From positions 1 through 30,578 of the IMG/VR virus record IMGVR_UViG_3300045988_171550: a DNA stretch of 30,578 nt. One strand, given 5' to 3'. Of this stretch, positions 1-10,558 are shown piece after piece (the first letter of the stretch is position 1; every line of letters starts with the position of its first letter). This stretch comes from a virus. The notes below the pieces were generated by a model, which searched no databases, was not told the DNA's origin, and saw only the letters and a program-made list of their open reading frames with translations. The position numbers and the translations under genes are program-made.

Positions 1-55
1 TCATATTTATATAAAAAATGGAATAGTTCTTAAAAGTGTTACGCAAATACTAAAA
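1..55. repeat. Terminal direct repeat identical to 30524..30578. Either a circular-assembly overlap or genuine terminal redundancy. The unique genome length is about 30523 bp.
   Basis: Bases 1-55 match bases 30524-30578 exactly, and an ORF reads through the junction in frame. Confidence 0.9.
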
Positions 56-541
56 GAACTATTCCCAAATAAATATGAAAATATACCAGATAAAATACTA
101 ACTTCAAAATCAGAATACGGAACTAAACTTCATAAATGCATTGAAATAATAGAAAAAAAGAAACCTAAAAGACCTATAAGTTATTGTAAAAGATATATAG
201 GAATTGATATATATCAAGAGCAAAGTTTAAAGGATTATTTAGAAATAAAAAAACAGTACAATATAGAAGTTTTAGAAAGTGAAAAGATAGTTAGTTATAA
301 TTATGATTATGCTGGAACACTTGATATGATAGCATTAGTAAATGGCAAGAAATCCATAATAGATATAAAAACAACATATGAATTTGATGAAATATATGTA
401 AGTTATCAAAATAGTTTATATGAACTTGCAAATGGTAAAGTAGATAAGTTATATTGTTTATGGCTACCTAAAAGAAAAATAGGTAAGTTAATAGAAGTTA
501 AAAGAATAAATAAGGGCATATTATTAGAAATAATAAAATAA
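2..541 (+). CDS. PD-(D/E)XK-superfamily nuclease (phage recombination exonuclease or Cas4-like), 3' part. The N-terminus is encoded at 30501..30578 across the circular junction.
   Basis: Frame 2 is open from position 2 and continues the ORF that starts at 30501, giving 187 aa in total. Motifs GTLDMIALV and IIDIKTT match the D...D/E-x-K arrangement of PD-(D/E)XK nucleases. The gene sits between an ERF-like annealing protein and SSB. Confidence 0.6.
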   Translation, partial: HIYIKNGIVLKSVTQILKELFPNKYENIPDKILTSKSEYGTKLHKCIEIIEKKKPKRPISYCKRYIGIDIYQEQSLKDYLEIKKQYNIEVLESEKIVSYNYDYAGTLDMIALVNGKKSIIDIKTTYEFDEIYVSYQNSLYELANGKVDKLYCLWLPKRKIGKLIEVKRINKGILLEIIK

Positions 542-558
542 AAAAGGAAGGAAAAAAA

Positions 559-984
559 ATGAATAGATGTGAATTTATTGGTAGACCAGTTAAAGCACTT
601 GAATTAAAAAAGACTTCAAATGGCAATAATATATTAACATTTACATTAGCAGTTAGAAGAGAATATAAAAATGTTAATGGAGAATATGATAGTGATTTTA
701 TTAGATTAAAAGCATTTAAGAATAGTGCTAACTTCATAAGCACTTATGTAAAAGTAGGAGATTTAATTTATATTGAAGCAACATATGTAAGTAGCACATA
801 TGATAAAGATGGACAAAAATTATATAGTCAAGATTTAATTGTTACTAAAGTAAAATGTTTAAGTGCTTCAAAATCAAAAAAAGAAGATAAAAAAGAAGAA
901 ACACCAACAACTCAAAATGAAGTAGACCCATATAAACAATTTGCAGATGAAACTGAAATAAATGAAAATGACTTTCCATTTTAA
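559..984 (+). CDS. ssb: Single-stranded DNA-binding protein with an acidic C-terminal tail (…NDFPF)
   Basis: OB-fold-like N-terminal region, a low-complexity linker, and a C-terminal D-F-P-F motif typical of SSB. A strong RBS (AAGGAAGGAAAAAAAATG) precedes the start. Confidence 0.8.
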   Translation: MNRCEFIGRPVKALELKKTSNGNNILTFTLAVRREYKNVNGEYDSDFIRLKAFKNSANFISTYVKVGDLIYIEATYVSSTYDKDGQKLYSQDLIVTKVKCLSASKSKKEDKKEETPTTQNEVDPYKQFADETEINENDFPF

Positions 985-992
985 GAGGTAAT

Positions 993-1328
993 ATGGATTT
1001 ATTAAATGAATTACAAAGTTTAAATAAACAACTTGAAATGTCAGTTAAAAGTTTAAGAATAAACGGAATAAAATATGCAGAGGCTGAAAGAGATTATAAA
1101 ATAGCAGTTAATAAAAAAGTATTAGAATTAAAAGATAATAAAATGGCAGTAGGTTTAATTAATCTTACAATATATGGTTATCAAGAAATAGCAACATTAA
1201 GATTTATGAGAGATAGTGCAGAGGTTATATATAATGCAAATCAAGAGGCAATTAATTCAATAAAACTTCGTATGAGATTAATAGAAAGTCAAATAAGTAG
1301 AGAATTTGGTTTAGGAGAAAATAAATGA
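993..1328 (+). CDS. hypothetical protein (111 aa)
   Basis: Long ORF with an RBS (GAGGTAATATG). Its stop overlaps the next start (ATGA), suggesting translational coupling. Confidence 0.5.
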   Translation: MDLLNELQSLNKQLEMSVKSLRINGIKYAEAERDYKIAVNKKVLELKDNKMAVGLINLTIYGYQEIATLRFMRDSAEVIYNANQEAINSIKLRMRLIESQISREFGLGENK

Positions 1329-1855
1329 GTATTAGAAGTAAATTTTGTGATTTTGACAAAGCAACTAGAAAATATATAAAAAAAAGAGATGGAGAAAAAT
1401 GTATTATATGTCATAGTAAAGGGGCATTACAAATAATGCATATATTCTTATCTAGAGCAAAAGGTGGAAAAGGTTGCAAAGAAAATGGATGTTTAGGTTG
1501 TGTAAAATGTCATAAAATAATAGATAATCCAATAGGACAAATTCAAAATGAAACCTCAAAAAGATATTTAAAATATTGTAAAGAATATTTAATACAAAAA
1601 GAAAATATATTAGAAAATTATGGTAGTGAAACAAATTTAATCAACAACCTATTAAAATTCAAGAATAAACCTATTGAATTAAAGAGTTTTGATTTAAACA
1701 GTATAAATATACTAGAAAAGAAAAAACAATGCCGAAAATGTATTTATTGTATTAAAAAAAGCAATAAATATAATTCATTACCAACATATTATTGCAGATT
1801 AAAACATAAAAGAGTTAATAAAAATAATATATGTGAAAATTATAAGGAGATATAA
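1325..1855 (+). CDS. HNH-family endonuclease-like protein with an additional C-terminal Cys cluster
   Basis: CIIC…MHIF…ENG…CVKCH fits the CxxC…H…N…CxxCH spacing of HNH zinc-finger nucleases. The C-terminus has a second cluster, CRKCIYC…C…C. Confidence 0.55.
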   Translation: MSIRSKFCDFDKATRKYIKKRDGEKCIICHSKGALQIMHIFLSRAKGGKGCKENGCLGCVKCHKIIDNPIGQIQNETSKRYLKYCKEYLIQKENILENYGSETNLINNLLKFKNKPIELKSFDLNSINILEKKKQCRKCIYCIKKSNKYNSLPTYYCRLKHKRVNKNNICENYKEI

Positions 1856-2049
1856 TGAACTTAAAAAGAAAAGTTGAAAGAAATAAAGAAAAAATAAAAC
1901 AAAAAGAAATAAGAGAAACATATGGAAAAAAACCAAAATCAATATGTCCAAGATGTCATAAACATAGTTTATTTATGACTAATCAAAATGGGGAAGTATA
2001 TTGTATCAGATGTGATAGACTTGTAGCATTAGACAAGAATAAAAAATAA
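1855..2049 (+). CDS. small zinc-ribbon protein (64 aa)
   Basis: CPRCH…(17)…CIRCD gives two CxxC pairs. The start overlaps the upstream stop (TAATG). Confidence 0.45.
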   Translation: MNLKRKVERNKEKIKQKEIRETYGKKPKSICPRCHKHSLFMTNQNGEVYCIRCDRLVALDKNKK

Positions 2050-2258
2050 TGATATAATAAAATTGCATAATATATATGCACACGGCACACCCCCTTTCAT
2101 TAAAAATCACTGATAGTGCTAGTATTATTTAGACATTCACATTGATTTTGTTTCGTTACAAAATCTCCTTTCTTGATTAAATGTGAAATCGACTATATTC
2201 TTATATTAAAACATCCTAAAACTTGTTTTAGTTCTATGTGAGTTTGCAAGTGATTAGT

Positions 2259-2287
2259 TTGACATAGAATTTATAAAATGATAAAAT
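2259..2287 (+). promoter_or_regulatory. sigma-70-like promoter candidate (TTGACA-N17-TAAAAT)
   Basis: The -35 TTGACA at 2259-2264 and the -10 TAAAAT at 2282-2287 are separated by a 17-nt spacer. The site lies in a 265-bp non-coding stretch upstream of a gene block. Confidence 0.4.
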
Positions 2288-2313
2288 AAAGAATATAAGG
2301 AGATAGGTACTTT

Positions 2314-2475
2314 ATGAAAGAATTAATAATAAAAATAATAGCAATCATAATATTAATAATAAATGTGTTATTTGTTTATGGTTGTTTTTTATTGCAAAAA
2401 ATAAAGTATCAACTCAAAATGAAAGAGAGGTGGAAAAATGAAAAAGTACGAATTCAAGAAGATAACATTAGATGA
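2314..2475 (+). CDS. small hydrophobic (single-TM) protein, 53 aa, below the 60-aa ORF cutoff
   Basis: ATG at 2314 follows AAGGAGATAGG by 7 nt. The product MKELIIKIIAIIILIINVLFVYGCFLLQK… contains a predicted TM helix. The ORF overlaps the next ORF by 38 nt in another frame. Confidence 0.3.
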   Translation: MKELIIKIIAIIILIINVLFVYGCFLLQKIKYQLKMKERWKNEKVRIQEDNIR

Positions 2476-2908
2476 ATATAAACTTGTAATTGAAAATAAA
2501 GAATACCCTTTTAAAAGAACAATTGAAATGGGAGAAAAAGTACAAGGAATAACAGCAAGTGCTAGAATTAAGATGTTAAAAGAACTTACCAAAATGGGTT
2601 TAACTAAAAATGACCTTATAATTAAAAAAGATTTGGGTAATGGTAAAATAACTTATGATGAAACTAATTATCAAGAATTTGAAAAGAAATTTATTGAAGA
2701 AGAAACATTACAAGTTGCAAATGATTTAATCGAAAGTTGTTTTAAAATGACAACAACTAAACTTTTTGAAGAACTAGGAATAAATGTTAATAGTGAAATC
2801 AACGAAGATGAAGCAAATGGAATTATGATGTTTACTCAAAAATTTATTACTATAATATCAAAAGGGGAAGAAGATACACCCAGTGATGGAAGTCCAGAAC
2901 AGTTATAA
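2438..2908 (+). CDS. hypothetical protein (156 aa)
   Basis: ORF with an RBS (AGAGAGGTGGAAAAATG). Confidence 0.5.
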   Translation: MKKYEFKKITLDEYKLVIENKEYPFKRTIEMGEKVQGITASARIKMLKELTKMGLTKNDLIIKKDLGNGKITYDETNYQEFEKKFIEEETLQVANDLIESCFKMTTTKLFEELGINVNSEINEDEANGIMMFTQKFITIISKGEEDTPSDGSPEQL

Positions 2909-3251
2909 AAATAGAGGTAGAAATAAAACTATATTTTGTTTTGCATATAAAGAAGATTTAGACCAAGCATATGCATTTTATTGTAGTAGATATGAAAATA
3001 TAAGTTATGAAGATTTCTTACAATTAGGTTTTTTTGAATTTAAGAAAAAACTTAATTCAATACCTAAAAGTGAACCACTTTATGATATAATTAAGTCAAG
3101 AACAATAAATATATCTTCAATTAAAGATAAAGAAGAAAAAAAATATTGGCAAAGTTTAAAAAGAATAAATGCAATACCTCAAATATTTATAAGTACGGAT
3201 GAAATATTTAAAAATTTAAAAGAACAAATGAAAGAAACAAGTCATATATGA
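2883..3251 (+). CDS. hypothetical protein (122 aa; the real start may be internal)
   Basis: Open frame. It overlaps the upstream ORF and its start is uncertain. Confidence 0.4.
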   Translation: MMEVQNSYKNRGRNKTIFCFAYKEDLDQAYAFYCSRYENISYEDFLQLGFFEFKKKLNSIPKSEPLYDIIKSRTINISSIKDKEEKKYWQSLKRINAIPQIFISTDEIFKNLKEQMKETSHI

Positions 3252-3382
3252 CAATAAATGAAGAATACGAAATAAAAATAAAAAAAGCCGTAAAAGAAGG
3301 CAATTTAAGACTAGCCTTTGATTTATATAATGAATGGTTAGACAAAGTTAATGAATTAAAAAAAGAAAGGAAGAAAAAATAA
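3248..3382 (+). CDS. small basic protein (44 aa), coupled to its neighbours by ATGA and TAATG overlaps
   Basis: The ATG at 3248 overlaps the upstream stop, and the stop at 3380-3382 overlaps the next ATG. The ORF is below the 60-aa track cutoff. Confidence 0.3.
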   Translation: MTINEEYEIKIKKAVKEGNLRLAFDLYNEWLDKVNELKKERKKK

Positions 3383-3798
3383 TGGAAAAAGATTTAATAT
3401 TATTTAATGATAAAATAAGCAAATTAACAAAAGAAATAGTAAAATATGAGGATGAAAAAGGAAACTTATTATTAATACCAACTGGAAATTTAATGTGTAA
3501 GGTAGAATATTTAGAACTTGATGAAATAGGTATGAAAAAGGCTCTATATGAAAATATAGTTGATAAAAACGAGACTTATAACAAAATTAAAGTAAATAGA
3601 GTTATTGATAAGAGTTCAAAGACTGGAAATAAAAAAGATGCTGGAATACTAATTGACAGTGAAGTAGAAGTTAGCCAAGTATGGGTAGTAACTAATGGTT
3701 TAGGATTAAATAAATCATTTAAAGATAAGGAAAAAGCCCTTAATCTTGCAATGACATTAAATAATAAATATTTAGAAATGGCAGAACTATGCAAATAA
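3382..3798 (+). CDS. hypothetical protein (138 aa)
   Basis: ORF with an RBS (AAGGAAGAAAAAATAATG). Confidence 0.5.
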   Translation: MEKDLILFNDKISKLTKEIVKYEDEKGNLLLIPTGNLMCKVEYLELDEIGMKKALYENIVDKNETYNKIKVNRVIDKSSKTGNKKDAGILIDSEVEVSQVWVVTNGLGLNKSFKDKEKALNLAMTLNNKYLEMAELCK

Positions 3799-4280
3799 TT
3801 TATAAAAGCATAGAAGAAATTAAACCTTATGAAAACAACCCTAGAATAAATGATGAAGCAGTTGAATATGTAGCAAATAGTATAAAGGAATTTGGTTTTA
3901 GAAGTCCGATTATATTAGATAAAAATAATGTAATTATATGTGGTCATACAAGATTACTTGCAAGTAAAGAATTAAAACTTAAAGAAGTACCTTGTATAAT
4001 TGCTGATGACTTAAATGATGAACAAGTAAAAGCATTAAGACTTGCAGATAATAAAGTTGCTGAAAAATCAATGTGGGATTATTCTAAATTAGATGAAGAA
4101 TTAGAAGATATTTTAAATATAGATATGAGTAAATTTGATTTCATTAATAATGACATAGACTGGGAAAATGTAGAAGAATTAGAAGATAGTAACTATGAAG
4201 AACCAGAACATAATATGTTAGAATGTCCAAAATGTCATCATATAGATAGAGATATACATTTTAAGAAAGTTGGAGTATAA
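3789..4280 (+). CDS. ParB/Srx-fold (ParB N-terminal domain) nuclease-like protein with a C-terminal CxxC…HH zinc motif. Possibly a minimal DpdB-like partner of the adjacent DpdA.
   Basis: YENNPRIND (the PxNPR box), FGFRSPIIL and IICGHTRLLA (GxxR box) are the ParB N-terminal-domain signature. A C-terminal CPKCHH is present. The gene lies 24 nt upstream of the DpdA-like gene. Confidence 0.7.
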   Translation: MQIIYKSIEEIKPYENNPRINDEAVEYVANSIKEFGFRSPIILDKNNVIICGHTRLLASKELKLKEVPCIIADDLNDEQVKALRLADNKVAEKSMWDYSKLDEELEDILNIDMSKFDFINNDIDWENVEELEDSNYEEPEHNMLECPKCHHIDRDIHFKKVGV

Positions 4281-4304
4281 GATGAAAATTAAAACTTTTT
4301 CTAA

Positions 4305-5090
4305 ATGAAAATATTTCTTAGTTCATTAGAAAATGGGCAATGTTCATTAATTAATGAGAAAAATGGCAAAAGACAAGAAAGTGCTATATATATGTATAAT
4401 CAAGGCGTAAGATACAAATGGAATTTAATGAGTTTTTATTACATAAAAAGCAAAAAAGAATTAGCAATATATATAAGAGATAGAAGTGAATTAATTGAAA
4501 TTGATAGTGGAGCACACAGTTTTCAAAAAGGAAAAAAAGTAGATTGGGTAGAATATACCAAACAATATGCTGAATTTATAAAAGAATTTGATAGACCGAA
4601 TGTTGTAGGTTATTTTGAAATGGATGTTGATAATATAATTGGCTATGATAAAGTATTAGAATTAAGAAAGATATTAGAAAGCGTTTCAAATAAAATAATA
4701 CCAGTATGGCACAAAAATAGTGGTATAGAAGAATATAAAAAAATGTGTAAGGATTATGCTGGAAAGATAATAGCAATAACAGGTTTTAAAAATGAAGATA
4801 TAAAAGACGAACAATATTTAATGTTTTTGAAATATGCTAAAAAATTTAATTGTAAAGTGCATTGTTTAGGTATGACAAGAAAAAAAATTTTAGATAAAGT
4901 TCCTTTTGATTTCGTAGATAGTAGTTCTTGGAAACAAAGTGGTATATTTGGTAGAATAGATGGCAAAGGTAAAGTCACAAAAAAATTCAGCAAAGAAAAA
5001 CGAGAAATAGTTTTTATGGAAAATTATAAAGTAGGAATAAAAATGCAATACCATTATTATGAGAAATGGAAAAAAGAATGTAAAGATTAG
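4305..5090 (+). CDS. dpdA: tRNA-guanine-transglycosylase (TGT) superfamily protein, DpdA-like DNA 7-deazaguanine transglycosylase
   Basis: EIDSGAHSFQ aligns to the TGT catalytic DSGGFQ box. KVHCLGMT aligns to the TGT YLMGVG box. VPFDFVDSSSWKQSGIFG aligns to TGT GIDMFDCVLPTRSGRNGQAF, which holds the nucleophile Asp. A protein of this kind in a phage, next to a ParB-like gene and a YhhQ transporter, points to DpdA. Confidence 0.65.
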   Translation: MKIFLSSLENGQCSLINEKNGKRQESAIYMYNQGVRYKWNLMSFYYIKSKKELAIYIRDRSELIEIDSGAHSFQKGKKVDWVEYTKQYAEFIKEFDRPNVVGYFEMDVDNIIGYDKVLELRKILESVSNKIIPVWHKNSGIEEYKKMCKDYAGKIIAITGFKNEDIKDEQYLMFLKYAKKFNCKVHCLGMTRKKILDKVPFDFVDSSSWKQSGIFGRIDGKGKVTKKFSKEKREIVFMENYKVGIKMQYHYYEKWKKECKD

Positions 5091-5126
5091 TAGTTAACCA
5101 AAACCTACTTAAAAAAAATTAAGGAG
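5089..5126 (+). promoter_or_regulatory. preQ1-I-riboswitch-like leader, a translational element that overlaps the Shine-Dalgarno of the YhhQ-like transporter gene
   Basis: AGUAG-UUAACCAAAAC-CUACU-UAAAAAAAAUUAAGGAG has a 5-bp P1, an 11-nt loop ending in C, an A-rich tail and UUAAGG. Length and layout match the B. subtilis queC aptamer AGAGG-UUCUAGCUACAC-CCUCU-AUAAAAAACUAAGG. A loop UUAA can pair with the tail UUAA as a P2 pseudoknot that would sequester the SD. Confidence 0.45.
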
Positions 5127-5134
5127 ATGATGAT

Positions 5135-5794
5135 ATGAATATATTATTAGGAATTACAGGAATAATATTATGTTTTAGTATAGAAATTTTGATAGAAAAG
5201 ATATTTAAAAAAGAAGGATTATATGTATGGGTAAGTGTTGCATTAATAACGGCGAATATATTAGTTGCTAAAAATATTAATGTATTAAATTTACAGGCTA
5301 CACTTGGAAATATATTATTTGCAAGTACATTTCTTGCAACTGACATATTAAGTGAGAAATATAGTTCTAAAGATAGCAAGAAAGCAGTTAATATGGGTAT
5401 TATAGCAGTTATATTATTTACAATTGCTACACAATTTAGTTTATTGTTTAAACCAAATGAATTAGATATGGTAAATAACAGTTTAAAGACAATATTTACT
5501 TTCAATTTAAGAATAAGCATATCAAGTATCATAATGTGCTATTTAAGTAATATGCTAGACATAATGTTGTTTGAAAAAATAAAGAAAAAAATACCAAATA
5601 AAATGTGGGTAAGAAATAATATAGCAACAATAATAAGCAATTGTTTAGAAAATTATTTATTCACATTATTTGCATTTATTGGTATTTATGATATAGGAAC
5701 GATATTATCAATTGCTACAACAACAACTATATTAGAAATTATGATAGCAATATGTGATACACCGTTTTTATATTTAAGCAAGAAATTAAAATAA
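5135..5794 (+). CDS. yhhQ: YhhQ/QueT-family queuosine-precursor (preQ0/preQ1) transporter, a polytopic membrane protein
   Basis: 219 aa with about 6 predicted TM segments. The FLATD motif (GNILFASTFLATDIL) aligns with E. coli YhhQ (FIFLATDLTV). The gene is adjacent to the DpdA-like gene. Confidence 0.65.
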   Translation: MNILLGITGIILCFSIEILIEKIFKKEGLYVWVSVALITANILVAKNINVLNLQATLGNILFASTFLATDILSEKYSSKDSKKAVNMGIIAVILFTIATQFSLLFKPNELDMVNNSLKTIFTFNLRISISSIIMCYLSNMLDIMLFEKIKKKIPNKMWVRNNIATIISNCLENYLFTLFAFIGIYDIGTILSIATTTTILEIMIAICDTPFLYLSKKLK

Positions 5795-5810
5795 AAAAGG
5801 AAGTGATATT

Positions 5811-6200
5811 ATGGTAAAAGGAGATACACCGGCACAGAATAAAATTAAAAAAGATGAATTTGAAAAATTATGTAGTTTACAATGTACTTATAATGAAATA
5901 TGTGATTGGTTTGATATTGATGATAAAACACTTAACGAATGGTGCAGGTCAACATATGGGACTACATTTTCCGAGGTATTCAAGATAAAAAGAGGTACAG
6001 GACAAATATCACTTCGAAGAACTCAATGGAAGTTAGCGGAGAAGAGTGCCGCAATGGCAATATTTCTAGGTAAACAATATTTAGGTCAAACTGATAAAGT
6101 AGAAACAAGTGGAAATGTATCTATAACACCTCAAATAGATATTAATGTTGTAGATAATAGTGAACTTGAAAGTATATTATATGAAAGTGATAAGAAATAA
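5811..6200 (+). CDS. terS: terminase small subunit (HTH-containing, P27-like)
   Basis: 129 aa, located upstream of the large terminase. The N-terminal HTH-like segment (EICDWFDIDDKTLNEW) and the conserved AAMAIFLGKQYLGQTDK block resemble small terminases of Firmicutes phages. Confidence 0.55.
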   Translation: MVKGDTPAQNKIKKDEFEKLCSLQCTYNEICDWFDIDDKTLNEWCRSTYGTTFSEVFKIKRGTGQISLRRTQWKLAEKSAAMAIFLGKQYLGQTDKVETSGNVSITPQIDINVVDNSELESILYESDKK

Positions 6201-6211
6201 GGAGGAAAAAT

Positions 6212-6436
6212 ATGGCAAGAAAGAAAAAAGTAGACATTATTAGTATGAATAATAAACCAGTTAATAAGAGTGTTCAAAATGAACCTGTAAAAGTTTCTGA
6301 CAAGTTCGTTAAAGAAATGAAACCAAGAGTTATTGGTAAAGTTAAGACATTACTTGTTAAAAACGGAAGAGTATATAAAGAAATAGGTAATGGTTATGGA
6401 ATATATGCTGATAGTGGAGAAATATTTAAAATATAA
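6212..6436 (+). CDS. hypothetical lysine-rich protein (74 aa)
   Basis: ORF with a strong RBS (AGGAGGAAAAATATG). Confidence 0.45.
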   Translation: MARKKKVDIISMNNKPVNKSVQNEPVKVSDKFVKEMKPRVIGKVKTLLVKNGRVYKEIGNGYGIYADSGEIFKI

Positions 6437-6445
6437 GGAGGCATT

Positions 6446-6679
6446 ATGGAATTTATTAAATTAAATAAAAATAGATATTTAATCAAAGATAGTAATAACC
6501 TAGTAGTTAGTGAAGAAGAAATGTTAAAACTTCAAAAGAAAGAACTAATTATAAAAGATATTCAAAGTAATGAGTGCCAAGGTAAAACTACTCAAAAAAT
6601 AATGGAAATAAATGAGAAATTAAATGAACAAAGTTCTAAACCTACAACTGTCAAAAAAACAAAAAAACCTATTAAATGA
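6446..6679 (+). CDS. hypothetical protein (77 aa). Its 3' end overlaps the terL start by 56 nt.
   Basis: ORF with a strong RBS (TAAGGAGGCATTATG). Confidence 0.45.
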   Translation: MEFIKLNKNRYLIKDSNNLVVSEEEMLKLQKKELIIKDIQSNECQGKTTQKIMEINEKLNEQSSKPTTVKKTKKPIK

Positions 6680-8523
6680 TATTATATCTCCAAATAAAAA
6701 AGAGATATATGTATTAGGTAGCACTCAAAGTGGAAAGACCTTTGATATATGTTTAGCGTGTATCTTATATGCACAAGCAGTATATGCTTATAGTCCTAAA
6801 GAAAAATACTTTGGCTCAATAACTGGTTGGAGTCTTGAAACCTTAAAAGGAAATATACTTGAACCTATAAAGAAATTTTTAGATGATATGGGTTTAAGAA
6901 AAAGTAAAGACTACATATTAAAATGGCAAACAGATGAGAAGTATTTAGAAATATATAACATAAGATATTATTTCTTTGGATTTAATAATGTACTAGCATT
7001 TAATAAGATACTAGGTAAACCATTATTATTTGAGTGGATAGATGAAAGTGCAAGAATATATTCACAATTAAATTTAAGAGAACCATTTAATGAATTTCCA
7101 GGTAGACAGGTGAGTTACGCTAATCACCCTTATTTAAAAACAATTCATTCATTCAATGTTGAGGGTGGAGAAAATCATCCTTACAAAATTGATTATATAG
7201 ACAAAAAACCAAAAGCAATACATTATACATTCTTCCCTTATGATAATCCAAAGATCAATACAAAGGAAGCAATGCAAAATGTAGTAGAAATGTTCCCACC
7301 TGGAAATTTAAGAGAACAAAAGATATTTAACAAATGGGTATTATCAACTGGTCGTGTATTTACTAAAATAAATAAAATAAATAGTCTAGATAATTATGCA
7401 TTTAGAGAAATAGGAGTAGGTATAGACTATGGTTCAGTTCACTCAACTGCATTTGTACCAATAGCACTTGCTTATGATAAAATAAATAAAAAATGGGTAT
7501 TAATAAGACTTGAAGTCTACTATCATAATCCAAAAGAAGAACAAGATAATCCTACAACGGAATATTTTAGTAAGCAATTAAGATTATTTTTATTATATTT
7601 AAAAAATGAATATGGACAAGTACCAATAACTACAATAGTGCTTGATAGTGCAGCCTCACATTTTCATAATAGGTTAATAGCAGATAATATACCTCATACA
7701 TTAATTAATAAAAGTCTTGATACAGTAGTAGAAGGTGTACAATATATGCAGTCATTATTCTATAAAGATTATTTACTTATTTATGAACAAAAATCAATTA
7801 AACATATAACTGATAATGGAGAAGTGATATATTGTGGTAAAGATGAGGGAATACTTGAACTTGAAACATATAGATATGATACAAATGCAAGTGCAAAGTC
7901 TGGAAAAGAATGCTATGTTAAAGAATTTGATGACCATATAGATTCTTGCTTAACAGGAGATACTATTATTGCAACAGATAGAGGTAATTTCAAAATAATT
8001 GATTTAGTTGGAAAAAGTGGAAATGTTAAATGCTTTGATGGTAATAGATTTATATATAAAAATTTTAAAGATGTAAGGCTTACAAAAAGAAAACAAGACA
8101 TATATAAGTTAAAATTATCAAATGGTTATGAATTAAAAGGAACATACGAACATCCTGTATTAACTATAAAAGGCTATAAGAAATTAGGAGAATTAACTGA
8201 AAAAGATAAAGTAATTTGCAATGGGAGAAATAAATTTTGTTCTAATAAATGTAAAAGTGCTTATAGAAGAAAATTAGGAGTGGATAATATTGAAAAAAAA
8301 TGTATCAGGTGTGGAAAAAAATTTGAAGTCAACAAATATTCAAAAAGAGAGCAATGTTACAATTGCTACCCCTGTAGAAATAAAAAAACTTCCAAATAAA
8401 GAAGATGTTTACAATATGGAGGTAGAAGAAGTTCACAATTTTGTTGCTAATGGAATTGTAGTTCATAATTGTAGATATATTATTATGGAATTTAAAGAAA
8501 CTGATAGAGCACCAGTAGTATAG
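6624..8523 (+). CDS. terL: terminase large subunit interrupted by a mini-intein. The reading frame as given has a +1 discontinuity at the A7 run at 8382-8388, so the ORF track splits it into 6624..8399 and 8290..8523.
   Basis: Walker A GSTQSGKT and Walker B LLFEWIDES are present, followed by a nuclease domain. The intein N-terminal splice block is CLTGDTII, block B is GYELKGTYEHPVLT, and the C-terminal block is VYNMEVEEVHNFVANGIVVHN|C. Joining the exteins gives …EFDDHIDS|CRYIIMEF…, which restores the terminase DDxxD-x-RY motif. Confidence 0.75.
7947..8469 (+). other. Hint-domain mini-intein inside terL. It carries an internal zinc-ribbon (Cys-rich) insert and has no homing-endonuclease domain. 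It is 523 nt long, so it contains a 1-nt frame break.
   Basis: It starts at Cys (TGC at 7947) in DS|CLTGDT and ends at HN (8464-8469) before the +1 Cys (8470). A Cys-rich segment CNGRNKFCSNKC…CIRCG…CYNCYPC is read in frame 3 up to the A7 run, and the block F/G sequence is read in frame 1 after it. Confidence 0.7.
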
Positions 8524-8534
8524 GAGGAATAAAA

Positions 8535-8750
8535 TTGGAATTAAGGTGTAAGGCAAGTAAGAGATTTCTATTTGATATAAATATAGAAGAATATTATAAT
8601 AATTTAAAAAAAATGGGTATAGAAATAAAAACTCCTATACTTATTAAAATACCTTGTGGTAAATGTAAATTAATAGAGGAATATGAAATATATCCTACAC
8701 ATTACATTCATATTAGAAGTTATAAAAGGGAATTTGACAAAAGAGATTAA
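8535..8750 (+). CDS. hypothetical small Cys-containing protein (71 aa, TTG start)
   Basis: RBS TAGGAGGAATAAAATTG, and a CxxC motif (PCGKCK). Confidence 0.4.
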   Translation: MELRCKASKRFLFDINIEEYYNNLKKMGIEIKTPILIKIPCGKCKLIEEYEIYPTHYIHIRSYKREFDKRD

Positions 8751-8809
8751 AAGTGATATTATAATTATGATATAAAAGTGCAAAAAATGTGTCGAAAAAG
8801 CATAAGAAG

Positions 8810-8840
8810 CATACATTAAGAAATTGGTGTATGTTTTTTT
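8810..8840 (+). terminator. weak rho-independent terminator candidate
   Basis: The stem CATACA/TGTATG (8810-8815 and 8828-8833) with a 12-nt loop is followed by T7 (8834-8840). Confidence 0.35.
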
Positions 8841-8859
8841 ATTGTAAAGGAGGCATAAA

Positions 8860-9201
8860 ATGAAAGAAATTATTAATAAATTTGTGAAAAAAATACAAAA
8901 AATAAAAGAAATTATTAATAAATTTGTGAAAAAAATACAAAAAATAAAAAAATATTATAAAACTAGATGGAAATTATATTTATATTATAAAAATCAATGT
9001 ATAGGTAAAAGATATATAGATGCAGATTTTGCACCTATGGGTAAAGAATATATGGTTAAAATTAAACATATGAAACATTTAGTAGGTGGTAATAATGTTC
9101 AAATGATAGTTACTGCCTATAAATATAAATATAGTAGTGAAAAGACTAGAGAAGTGCATATAGAGGTAATACCTTATGAGGGGGTGACAATAAATGAATA
9201 A
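8860..9201 (+). CDS. hypothetical protein (113 aa) with a duplicated N-terminal 14-aa segment
   Basis: RBS AAGGAGGCATAAAATG. A perfect 42-bp tandem duplication encodes KEIINKFVKKIQKI twice. Confidence 0.45.
   Translation: MKEIINKFVKKIQKIKEIINKFVKKIQKIKKYYKTRWKLYLYYKNQCIGKRYIDADFAPMGKEYMVKIKHMKHLVGGNNVQMIVTAYKYKYSSEKTREVHIEVIPYEGVTINE
8863..8946 (+). repeat. perfect 42-bp tandem duplication (2 copies), in frame within a CDS
   Basis: Bases 8863-8904 equal bases 8905-8946 (aaagaaattattaataaatttgtgaaaaaaatacaaaaaata). Confidence 0.9.
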
Positions 9202-10558
9202 TCAAATAAGATTAAAATCAGCATATGATTATTTACAAGCACCATTTATAAGAGTTGAAGCAACAGTTACACAACCAGGTATAACAAATGGAAAACCAAA
9301 CATAATGAAGTCTTATGACTATATAATTGCACCAAGTGGAAAAAAGATATCTACATATATAGTAAATCAAATATTTGGTAGTGATTTAGTAACACAAACG
9401 CAAGGACTTTCAATAAACTGGCTAATGCCAACATTAAAAAAGTCTTTAGAACTTGCTGTATATGAAGAAGAAAGTTTTATATTAATAAATAAATATGATG
9501 GAAAAATCTATCTTGAATGTATTAAAAAAAGTGATATTCACGATTTAGTACAAAAATATGACAAAATAATAAGTGGTACGATAATACAAATATATGAAAC
9601 TAATGGAGATACCTATGAACTACATAGAGAAATAAAACTTGAAAATGGAATAACATTTATGTTTATGAAACCATATAAAGTAGATGCTAAAGGAAAATTA
9701 ACACCAATAGATATAAATATATTCAATAAATATACAGGTAGTGATTATATTAGCAAATATGTATTACCTTATGAGAATTTAATCAATATTGATATTGGGG
9801 AAAACTTCTTCAAAGATAGTAAAAAATTCTTAAATGAAGAAATGGAAATATTTAATACAATTGCTGATGAAATTGAAAAGACAAAAACAAGAATAGCAAC
9901 ATCACAACATTATCAAAGTGGAGATATTGTAAGTAATTGGCAACCTGGCTCAAATCATTATAAAGTAGATACTATAACAGTAGGTAAATTAGCAGATTAT
10001 TTTACATTATTACCTGGAGATAAAGACCATCAATTATTTCAATTCTTACAAGGAGATATAAGAATAGATAAATACATAACTACATTCAAGTTTTGCGATT
10101 ATCAAGTAATTCAAATGGCAGGTTTAAGCCCAGTTTCATTCGGTTATGAAAAAGATGAGTATCAAAATAAAGATAGTGTTGATTTAAGTAAAAATAATAG
10201 TGATATGACAATAGAGGCTATTAAGACACAAATAGAACCTCAAATAAATAAATTAATAGAAAATATTGTTAAAGCACAACAAAGTAATAACATTACAATT
10301 AATGCAATACCAAATGAATTAAACTGGAATTATGGAGCAAACGAAAAATTTGATGATATGAAAAAACTTCAAGTTTTAGGCAAAATTCAAAGTGTAGGAA
10401 GTATTCCATATAGTGTTAAAGCAAAAATCATTATGCCGATATTAAATAAACTAATTGATGAGGATTATTCAGAAAAAAATAAAAAATTAATAGAAGATTT
10501 AATAAAAGCAAATGAGGAAGAAGAAAAAGCATTAAGAATTGAATACGGAGAGGTATAA
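9194..10558 (+). CDS. portal protein (SPP1 gp6-like, assigned by position)
   Basis: A 454-aa ORF immediately after terL and before the MuF-like gene. The size and gene order fit SPP1-type portals. No sharp motif was recognised. Confidence 0.55.
   Translation: MNNQIRLKSAYDYLQAPFIRVEATVTQPGITNGKPNIMKSYDYIIAPSGKKISTYIVNQIFGSDLVTQTQGLSINWLMPTLKKSLELAVYEEESFILINKYDGKIYLECIKKSDIHDLVQKYDKIISGTIIQIYETNGDTYELHREIKLENGITFMFMKPYKVDAKGKLTPIDINIFNKYTGSDYISKYVLPYENLINIDIGENFFKDSKKFLNEEMEIFNTIADEIEKTKTRIATSQHYQSGDIVSNWQPGSNHYKVDTITVGKLADYFTLLPGDKDHQLFQFLQGDIRIDKYITTFKFCDYQVIQMAGLSPVSFGYEKDEYQNKDSVDLSKNNSDMTIEAIKTQIEPQINKLIENIVKAQQSNNITINAIPNELNWNYGANEKFDDMKKLQVLGKIQSVGSIPYSVKAKIIMPILNKLIDEDYSEKNKKLIEDLIKANEEEEKALRIEYGEV

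Follow-up and report, generated by a model that had tools for sequence, protein, structure and literature searches.

Class I preQ1 (preQ1-I) riboswitches are known to control yhhQ, the gene of a queuosine-precursor transporter (PMC10622847, PMC11625349), and three types of them (I, II and III) have been described, whose definitions we take from these two reviews. In solved aptamers of this class, recognition of the ligand involves four elements, namely the C located just 5′ of the 3′ arm of the hairpin P1, U6, the last adenine of L3 and the G of the closing pair (PMC11625349). In phages, 7-deazaguanine modules have been reported in which DpdA occurs with or without YhhQ, for instance in 9g, CAjan and Dp-1 (Hutinet 2019, PMC6884629; Kot 2020, PMC7544227). 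The word riboswitch does not occur in either of these two papers, and full-text searches of the literature did not turn up any report of a preQ1 riboswitch located in front of a phage yhhQ. Here, we analyse a stretch of 30,578 nucleotides (nt) from the IMG/VR virus record IMGVR_UViG_3300045988_171550, hereafter the window, in which an element of 36 bases lies between a dpdA-like gene and yhhQ. Sequence comparisons make it very probable that this element belongs to the preQ1 class I riboswitches as a divergent member overlooked by standard Rfam annotation, and we consider it likely that it is functional, sensing a 7-deazaguanine and acting as a translational OFF switch of the phage yhhQ.

The element reads AGUAG-UUAACCAAAAC-CUACU-UAAAAAAAAUUAAGGAG (5089-5126). 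Its hairpin has 5 bp and closes an 11-nt loop whose last two bases are AC; next come a U and eight A (U-A8) and then UUAAGGAG, and 8 nt separate the end of the element (5126) from the ATG of yhhQ (5135). An earlier reading of the same DNA, made from the letters alone (the original prediction), had pointed to a preQ1-I-like leader at this site. The layout that it gave, with AGUAG and CUACU as the arms of P1, a loop ending in C, an A-rich tail and UUAAGG, is borne out by the sequence. The same holds for its claim that the element overlaps the stop codon of dpdA, as the last two bases of the TAG at 5088-5090 are the first two of P1, and for the assignment of the downstream gene to yhhQ: the 219-amino-acid product matches the NCBIfam equivalog TIGR00697 with 146 bits (cutoff 51) and Pfam Vut_1 with an E value of 1.5e-34.

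The original prediction had proposed an Infernal search with RF00522 (PreQ1) as a check. In a permissive scan of 5040-5180, this family was the best of the 4227 in Rfam and was matched over the full model (5084-5128); the score was 18.2 bits (E 0.093 on 141 nt), under the gathering score of 39 bits. With a floor of about 17.6 bits, the element is the single place on either strand of positions 1-10000 of the window that RF00522 matches.

A blastn search of GenBank phages with 4305-5794 gave no match, and tblastn with YhhQ against the same phages found distant homologues from cultured phages only (23-34% identity). In IMG/VR, many contigs share the dpdA-yhhQ junction, and the synteny parB-dpdA-yhhQ(-terS) was observed by tblastn in 64 fetched loci. 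A covariance model, R1, was built from 22 phage leaders and applied to yhhQ loci, of which the 80 from phages had been ascertained through the YhhQ protein alone. R1 matches 49 of these 80 phage loci and 20 of 80 bacterial ones, in all cases directly upstream of yhhQ. In the window, it finds one copy with 68.7 bits, the runner-up scoring 14.6 (A-rich regions with a Shine-Dalgarno sequence alone give 10-15 bits with this model); a further copy, for instance before another gene, was thus not found in the window.

The accepted family is also found at this site. RF00522 exceeds its gathering score at the yhhQ leaders of the bacterial metagenome-assembled genomes (MAGs) L144 (49 bits), L150 (48.4) and L152 (45.1) and of the IMG/VR phage contig L043 (41.2). 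Under the cutoff, scores descend through L076 (36), L159 (31.1), L071 (28.3), L042 (25.5) and L073 (21.7) to the 18.2 bits of the window, and away from the yhhQ leader RF00522 has no match above about 20 bits in these loci (about 135 kb). In L042, P1 is identical to that of the window (AGUAG/CUACU), and the differences are confined to the loop and the tail. As the scores are continuous at an orthologous site, the element of the window is the lowest-scoring in a series of homologues and not an isolated look-alike. Additionally, the mean identity of the 36-nt element is about 90% among 27 phage loci, a value inflated by the pattern-based selection of these loci, while the coding DNA of dpdA and yhhQ on either side is about 67% identical.

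The comparison of these sequences supports P1 in particular. In 46 distinct phage sequences, 98.3% of the cells of the alignment are paired at P1, and compensatory changes are observed at four of the five pairs (47 cells), for instance UA/CG/AU at pair 3 and AU/GC/UA at pair 4. None of 500 shuffles reached the observed score, and slid registers fall to 28-64% paired. The top pair, G5-C17, is invariant in the 46 sequences, and so is C16, which is also kept in the aligned bacterial relatives. Within the subtype to which the window belongs (22 distinct sequences), G5, U6, U7, A8, C10, A12, A14, A15, C16 and C17 are invariant, as are A24-A30, U32, A33, A34, G35 and G36 in the tail. Consequently, all four of the elements that read the ligand in class I are present and fixed. 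The original prediction had raised the concern that the ligand-binding positions might turn out to be incompatible with the preQ1-I consensus; the predicted contacts C16, U6, A30 and G5-C17 are all present and invariant, which speaks against it. Of the type I features, UC before the 3′ arm of P1 and a C in the tail are absent (the element has AC and U31, sharing the UU motif only), and a single ligand site is therefore expected.

For the pseudoknot P2, we propose a register other than the one first put forward. The original prediction had paired the UUAA of the loop with the UUAA of the tail (U6-A34, U7-A33, A8-U32 and A9-U31), and in 10 of the 22 distinct sequences of the subtype the pair 9-31 is broken. 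This register was rejected, as all four bases occur at position 9 and the pairing would leave no L1 linker and use up U6. Pairing of N9 with a C or U of the tail, as in G11-C31 of Bacillus subtilis, was also rejected for this subtype, since N9 is any base while U31 is fixed. In an alternative register, C10-G36, C11-G35, A12-U32 and A13-U31 are formed, with A33 and A34 unpaired or non-canonical, and all 22 distinct sequences are 100% paired. From this register we infer that P2 buries the GG of the Shine-Dalgarno sequence; the coverage of this sequence by a pseudoknot, as originally suggested, would thus be retained, and the UUAA/UUAA pairing would not. L1, L2 and L3 would have 4, 2 and 9 nt, respectively, a geometry that appears to resemble those of the Escherichia coli type III and Thermoanaerobacter tengcongensis aptamers.

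The pair 13-31 changes from AU to UA in three of the 22 sequences, the sole loop-tail covariation in the data: the loop CCAAAAC accompanies the tail UUAAGG, and the loop CCAUAAC accompanies the tail AUAAGG. The pair 11-35 changes once, from CG to UG. In a metagenome scan in which positions 12, 13, 31 and 32 were left free, about 80 instances were found, with only A13/U31 and U13/A31 and no new P2 variants beyond these two known states; the switch between them is seen on two different P1 backgrounds.

Several observations speak against the element being a preQ1-I riboswitch, or at least a working one. Its 18.2 bits are less than half the RF00522 gathering score, and an Rfam scan of the window at gathering thresholds gave no match. 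P1 is weak: the minimum-energy fold of the isolated 38-mer is the P1 hairpin with -1.7 kcal/mol, as against about -4 to -6 in canonical examples, and that of 5084-5140 (57 nt) does not contain P1 and has an energy no better than those of shuffles (z = 0.2). The loop is unlike that of every described type, being purine-rich with UUAN as L1, and types I and II conserve a C at the tail position that is U in the window. P2 rests on one covarying pair, which may reflect one or two evolutionary events, and the invariant G35 and G36 are also constrained as part of the Shine-Dalgarno sequence. Finally, the element is missing from some relatives. In L003/L038, which are the same contig, a deletion has fused dpdA to yhhQ and removed it (what is missing at L003 2980-3020 extends from the 3′ end of dpdA through the entire element into the initial codons of yhhQ, and dpdA apparently runs straight on into yhhQ). 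L082 and L084 have neither intergenic space nor element, and yhhQ abuts the upstream gene in CDKM15, phiFN37 and Roos, three of the four distinct cultured phages with a yhhQ that matches the protein of the window. As some related phages lack it, the element is dispensable.

Since single-sequence folding is uninformative and the Rfam score is sub-threshold, the case is decided by the comparative data. A random short hairpin beside poly-A and a Shine-Dalgarno sequence could arise by chance in an AT-rich genome (the window has about 25% G+C), and the E value of 0.093 and the shuffle-like folding energy would fit such an origin. However, dozens of independent contigs carry the conserved element, with covariation of P1, and carry it at this one gene junction in every case; the scores run without a break to above-threshold members of RF00522, and nothing comparable is matched elsewhere in the window. 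Coincidence is effectively refuted by these results and we find it hardly credible.

Decay is a more serious objection. A hairpin followed by an A-rich leader with a strong Shine-Dalgarno sequence might have been inherited with yhhQ as a relic that does not respond to any ligand, its role being in translation initiation, in mRNA stability or in translational coupling after the dpdA stop. The sub-threshold score, the weak P1 and the related phages that manage without the element all agree with this explanation, as does the fact that A-rich regions with a Shine-Dalgarno sequence reach 10-15 bits with the family model by themselves. Nevertheless, what has been kept invariant comprises 11 nucleotides of the loop, with the specificity C and U6, and the exact length and composition of L3, while P1 compensates and the flanks are about 67% identical. 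A generic hairpin needs no conserved loop, and the covariation between positions 13 and 31 has no place in a plain hairpin. Consequently, we regard a non-sensing relic as very unlikely.

The core AGUAG UUAACCAAAAC CUACU is also found before yhhQ in MAGs of uncultured Clostridia (L120, L126 and L129). In these, a short-chain dehydrogenase (SDR) gene precedes it and yhhQ follows, with lytB adjacent and no dpdA nearby, which is a chromosomal context. As the same core precedes chromosomal yhhQ genes of Clostridia, capture of a cassette is the simplest history, and the phage lineage probably acquired riboswitch and yhhQ together from a Clostridia host.

As regards the mode of action, we expect control at the level of translation and from within a dpdA-yhhQ transcript, because the aptamer ends in the Shine-Dalgarno sequence, no terminator follows and no distinct promoter precedes it. 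In fact, between the aptamer and the ATG of yhhQ there is neither a terminator nor space for one, and promoter-like sites between dpdA and yhhQ are not more frequent than in shuffles. The ligand and its binding, the direction of regulation and the physiological logic are, like the P2 register, our proposal. In this model, a polycistronic parB-dpdA-yhhQ message would carry the switch, and the weak 5-bp P1 hairpin (5089-5093 with 5105-5109) would form on it. A 7-deazaguanine, preQ1 and/or preQ0, would stack on the floor pair G5-C17, where it would be recognised by C16 through a Watson-Crick pair and, at its other edge, by U6 and A30, the A-rich L3 lying in the minor groove of P1. The ligand would thereby stabilise an H-type pseudoknot of C10-C11-A12-A13 with U31-U32 and G35-G36, which would bury the GG of AAGGAG and decrease the translation of yhhQ. 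When the 7-deazaguanine pool drops, for instance through its use by the DpdA-like enzyme during phage DNA replication, P2 would open and the transporter would be made, a feedback that we hold to be the most likely logic. It may also be speculated that a ribosome ending at the dpdA stop covers and unfolds P1 and so resets the sensor; in some relatives (L010/L077), this stop lies up to about 28 nt upstream.

A more elaborate version would make the element an unclassified preQ1-I subtype that combines the re-registered P2 with a pocket tuned to the DpdA precursor (preQ0 or a relative) and with a reset of the sensor by termination on dpdA. We find this combination fairly unlikely; if it were true, the translation of yhhQ would integrate dpdA expression with the 7-deazaguanine pool, in a phage-specific feedback on DNA hypermodification.

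A change of ligand has to be weighed as well. The fold would then be the same, with a preference shifted from preQ1 to preQ0 or to another 7-deazaguanine that is inserted into DNA, and through the loop CCAAAA, the U31 of the tail and the re-registered P2 the ceiling of the pocket would have adapted around the 7-substituent. It agrees with this explanation that the specificity C and the floor G are kept while the ceiling nucleotides are unlike those of all three described types, and that the partner gene is that of a DpdA-like DNA transglycosylase and not a gene of the tRNA pathway. Additionally, YhhQ prefers the import of preQ0, and the class I types differ in their discrimination between preQ0 and preQ1 (PMC10622847). 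By contrast, known class I aptamers already bind both compounds, and the presence of the core before chromosomal bacterial yhhQ genes without a nearby dpdA means that the subtype is not phage-specific. A shift of this kind seems decidedly unlikely to us, and an OFF switch that responds to preQ1 and/or preQ0 is the reading that we retain.

The positions of the features discussed here are collected in the table below.

Table. Features of the yhhQ leader and its flanking genes in the window, and loci with a different leader before yhhQ (coordinates of the respective loci).
Feature	Position	Strand	Basis or remark
DpdA-like open reading frame (phage queuine/7-deazaguanine transglycosylase family), 261 amino acids	4305..5090	+	phrog_887, BLASTP, synteny
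P1 5′ arm AGUAG (nt 1-5); G5 = 5093, predicted pocket-floor guanine	5089..5093	+	pairs with 5105-5109
Loop, 11 nt, UUAACCAAAAC	5094-5104	+	sequence
L1 UUAA (nt 6-9)	5094..5097	+	U6, U7 ("UU motif") and A8 invariant; position 9 A/G/U/C
Proposed P2 5′ strand CCAA (nt 10-13), anti-Shine-Dalgarno	5098..5101	+	inferred from loop-tail pairing
L2 AA (nt 14-15) and predicted specificity C16 (5104), "AC" signature of types II/III	5102..5104	+	conservation
P1 3′ arm CUACU (nt 17-21)	5105..5109	+	covariation
L3, A-rich tail U-A8 (nt 22-30); A30 = 5118, predicted minor-groove-edge ligand contact	5110..5118	+	A24-A30 invariant
Tail, U + A8 + UUAAGGAG	5110-5126	+	sequence
Proposed P2 3′ strand UUAAGG (nt 31-36)	5119..5124	+	loop-tail pairing
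Shine-Dalgarno AAGGAG for yhhQ, GG within proposed P2	5121..5126	+	read from sequence
yhhQ, queuosine-precursor (preQ0/preQ1) transporter, 219 amino acids, presumed regulated gene	5135..5794	+	Pfam, NCBIfam
YUCC leader, IMG/VR phages	L088 1441-1500, L091 1444-1498, L093 1444-1498, L097 1441-1495, L098 1415-1486, L100 718-774		
YUCC leader, Clostridia MAG	L158 1431-1496		

The window derives from a small AT-rich tailed phage. Its genes are ordered ParB-like, DpdA-like, the element, yhhQ, small terminase and large terminase, with SSB, ERF and DnaB genes at the window ends. The upstream open reading frame (ORF) matches phrog_887, "queuine tRNA-ribosyltransferase" (E 1.2e-32), and in BLASTP searches it aligns with the "queuine tRNA-ribosyltransferase" of the Fusobacterium phage phiFN37 (34% identity, E 8e-25) and with gp07 of the Streptococcus phage Dp-1 (25% identity, E 5e-7); sequence searches of Pfam, NCBIfam and PDB gave no match for it. 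The phrog_887 match and the alignments with these two homologues are the reasons for which we call it DpdA-like.

Just downstream of the element, an out-of-frame mini-ORF, AUG AUG AUA UGA (5127-5138), begins 1 nt past the Shine-Dalgarno sequence and overlaps the AUG of yhhQ. The sequence UUAAGGAGAUGAU of this region is kept in many relatives and resembles the extended anti-Shine-Dalgarno complement of the 16S 3′ end, UAAGGAGGUGAU; it is probably merely an extended Shine-Dalgarno sequence. Further away, the ORF of the large terminase (6624-8399, 591 amino acids) has a C-terminal insertion, with a sub-threshold match to the intein-splicing family PF14890 (28.7 bits versus 35.8) and a PHROG match to HNH endonucleases at residues 533-579, which may represent an intein or a homing-endonuclease insertion. 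On the minus strand of 4-81, Rfam returned sub-threshold matches to the antisense RNA Spy392987 (27.5 bits versus 47, E 0.14) and to the rhtB small RNA (22 bits), probably by chance in AT-rich sequence.

Other leaders were observed in front of yhhQ. In many MAGs of Clostridia, Bacilli and Tenericutes (L116-L143, at about 1440-1500), they have the form ACUAG UUA(A/G)(C/U)CUAC(A/G)C(A/C)NC CUAGU AUAAAAAAGG(G)AAGGAG and look by eye like preQ1-I of the B. subtilis kind, with a CUACAC loop and an A-tail; several of them follow the stop codon of an SDR gene. In four of these loci (L118, L121, L127 and L130), no RF00522 match was obtained at E ≤10 (about 20 bits), and the leaders look like another subtype that Rfam misses. 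A different leader, YUCC-C(C/G)GAAACUGCAAUG-[variable hairpin]-CACAAAACGAAA(A)-GGAG, occurs in IMG/VR phages and in one Clostridia MAG. Its 5′ YUCC can pair with the Shine-Dalgarno sequence, with one compensatory change from C-G to U-A, and its inner hairpin covaries. The six phage loci were scanned, L158 not being among them, and no Rfam family reached about 20 bits, preQ1-I, II and III included; this leader may be an undescribed 7-deazaguanine-responsive RNA. In some loci, tRNA genes are located just 3′ of yhhQ (L144 2240-2400 and L150 3559-3630 in bacteria, L069 2690-2760 in a phage; 60-70 bits with the Rfam tRNA model).

The phage Dp-1 (NC_015274, L199) was considered separately. Annotated preQ1 riboswitches were looked for in this phage, and its GenBank record has no such feature; no RF00522 match was reported in bases 1-5000. 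The 5′ leader of its 7-deazaguanine operon (73-126) reads AGCAG-UUUUGUAAACCUGACAUC-CUGCU-AAAUAAAAAUAAAGGAGG. Its hairpin resembles that of preQ1-I and has a loop of 18 nt with UC as the last bases, and R1 gives this leader 23 bits (E 3.7e-4 in 5 kb).

If the element is a riboswitch, a phage regulates the import of a precursor by means of a small-molecule sensor, and the supply side of DNA hypermodification becomes approachable by experiment. The aptamer group that lies under the curated threshold of Rfam extends over dozens of rumen and gut phage contigs and over chromosomal yhhQ leaders of Clostridia and Bacilli. As this group is invisible at that threshold, the numbers of riboswitches counted in phages and among uncultured Firmicutes are too low.

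Compared with described phage 7-deazaguanine modules, the locus shares the presence of a DpdA-like transglycosylase beside a YhhQ precursor transporter. None of the genes for preQ0 synthesis (queC, queD, queE and folE) was found among the window ORFs tested, some small ORFs being unscanned, and in this respect the phage is like the "DpdA-only" group, which relies on a host or imported precursor.

Among riboswitches, the original prediction had likened the element to the type II aptamer of B. subtilis queC. The resemblance holds for the 5-bp P1 and for AC, and a single predicted ligand site is a further likeness to type II, but the match does not extend to the details, as shown by the UU motif and the AAGG tail. 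In addition, the B. subtilis type II element acts by transcription termination, while that of the window has no terminator. With the type II aptamer of T. tengcongensis it would share the partial burial of the Shine-Dalgarno sequence in P2 and non-canonical or bulged positions; the 9 nt of L3 presumably equal those of that aptamer as well. The ceiling pair of types I and II, G11-C30/31, is replaced in the window, where U31 stands in the tail and loop position 9 may be any base in the subtype. A type II kind does occur among the leaders of sister phages, many of which have the loop UAUGCAAUAAC and the tail CUAAGG.

Type III, represented within RF00522 by the yhhQ leaders of E. coli and Shigella (PDB 8fza, cited in PMC11625349), is similar in its target, yhhQ, and in its exclusively translational control, which we also expect in the window. 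Both have the UU motif after the 5′ arm of P1, AC before the 3′ arm, an A-rich L3 and a tail ending in AAGG, whose GG, in the window by our proposed pairing, pairs with two loop cytosines and sequesters the Shine-Dalgarno sequence; L2 would also have 2 nt, as in E. coli. The differences are nevertheless considerable. The loop of the window is purine-rich (UUANCCAAAAC, 11 nt), while that of type III is short and pyrimidine-rich. After CC there is A instead of U, so that the E. coli pair U11-A28 has no counterpart, and two A-U pairs (A12-U32 and A13-U31) with an AA bulge are proposed in the window. P1 contains two G-C pairs, while type III conserves three, and the window element obtains 18 bits on the family model. 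Additionally, the subtype of the window is found in Firmicutes-type phages and Clostridia, while type III is found in gamma-proteobacteria.

The mechanism class, to which the element belongs judging from its homology and the anatomy of its pocket, is already well known, and the element extends existing knowledge without any break with it. By mixing signatures of types I to III with an apparently different P2 register, the subtype offers a natural test of how features of the pocket ceiling affect affinity and the discrimination between preQ0 and preQ1. On sequence grounds, the element does not fall squarely into any of the three described types, and it is best described as bearing the type III signature with a longer, purine-rich loop.

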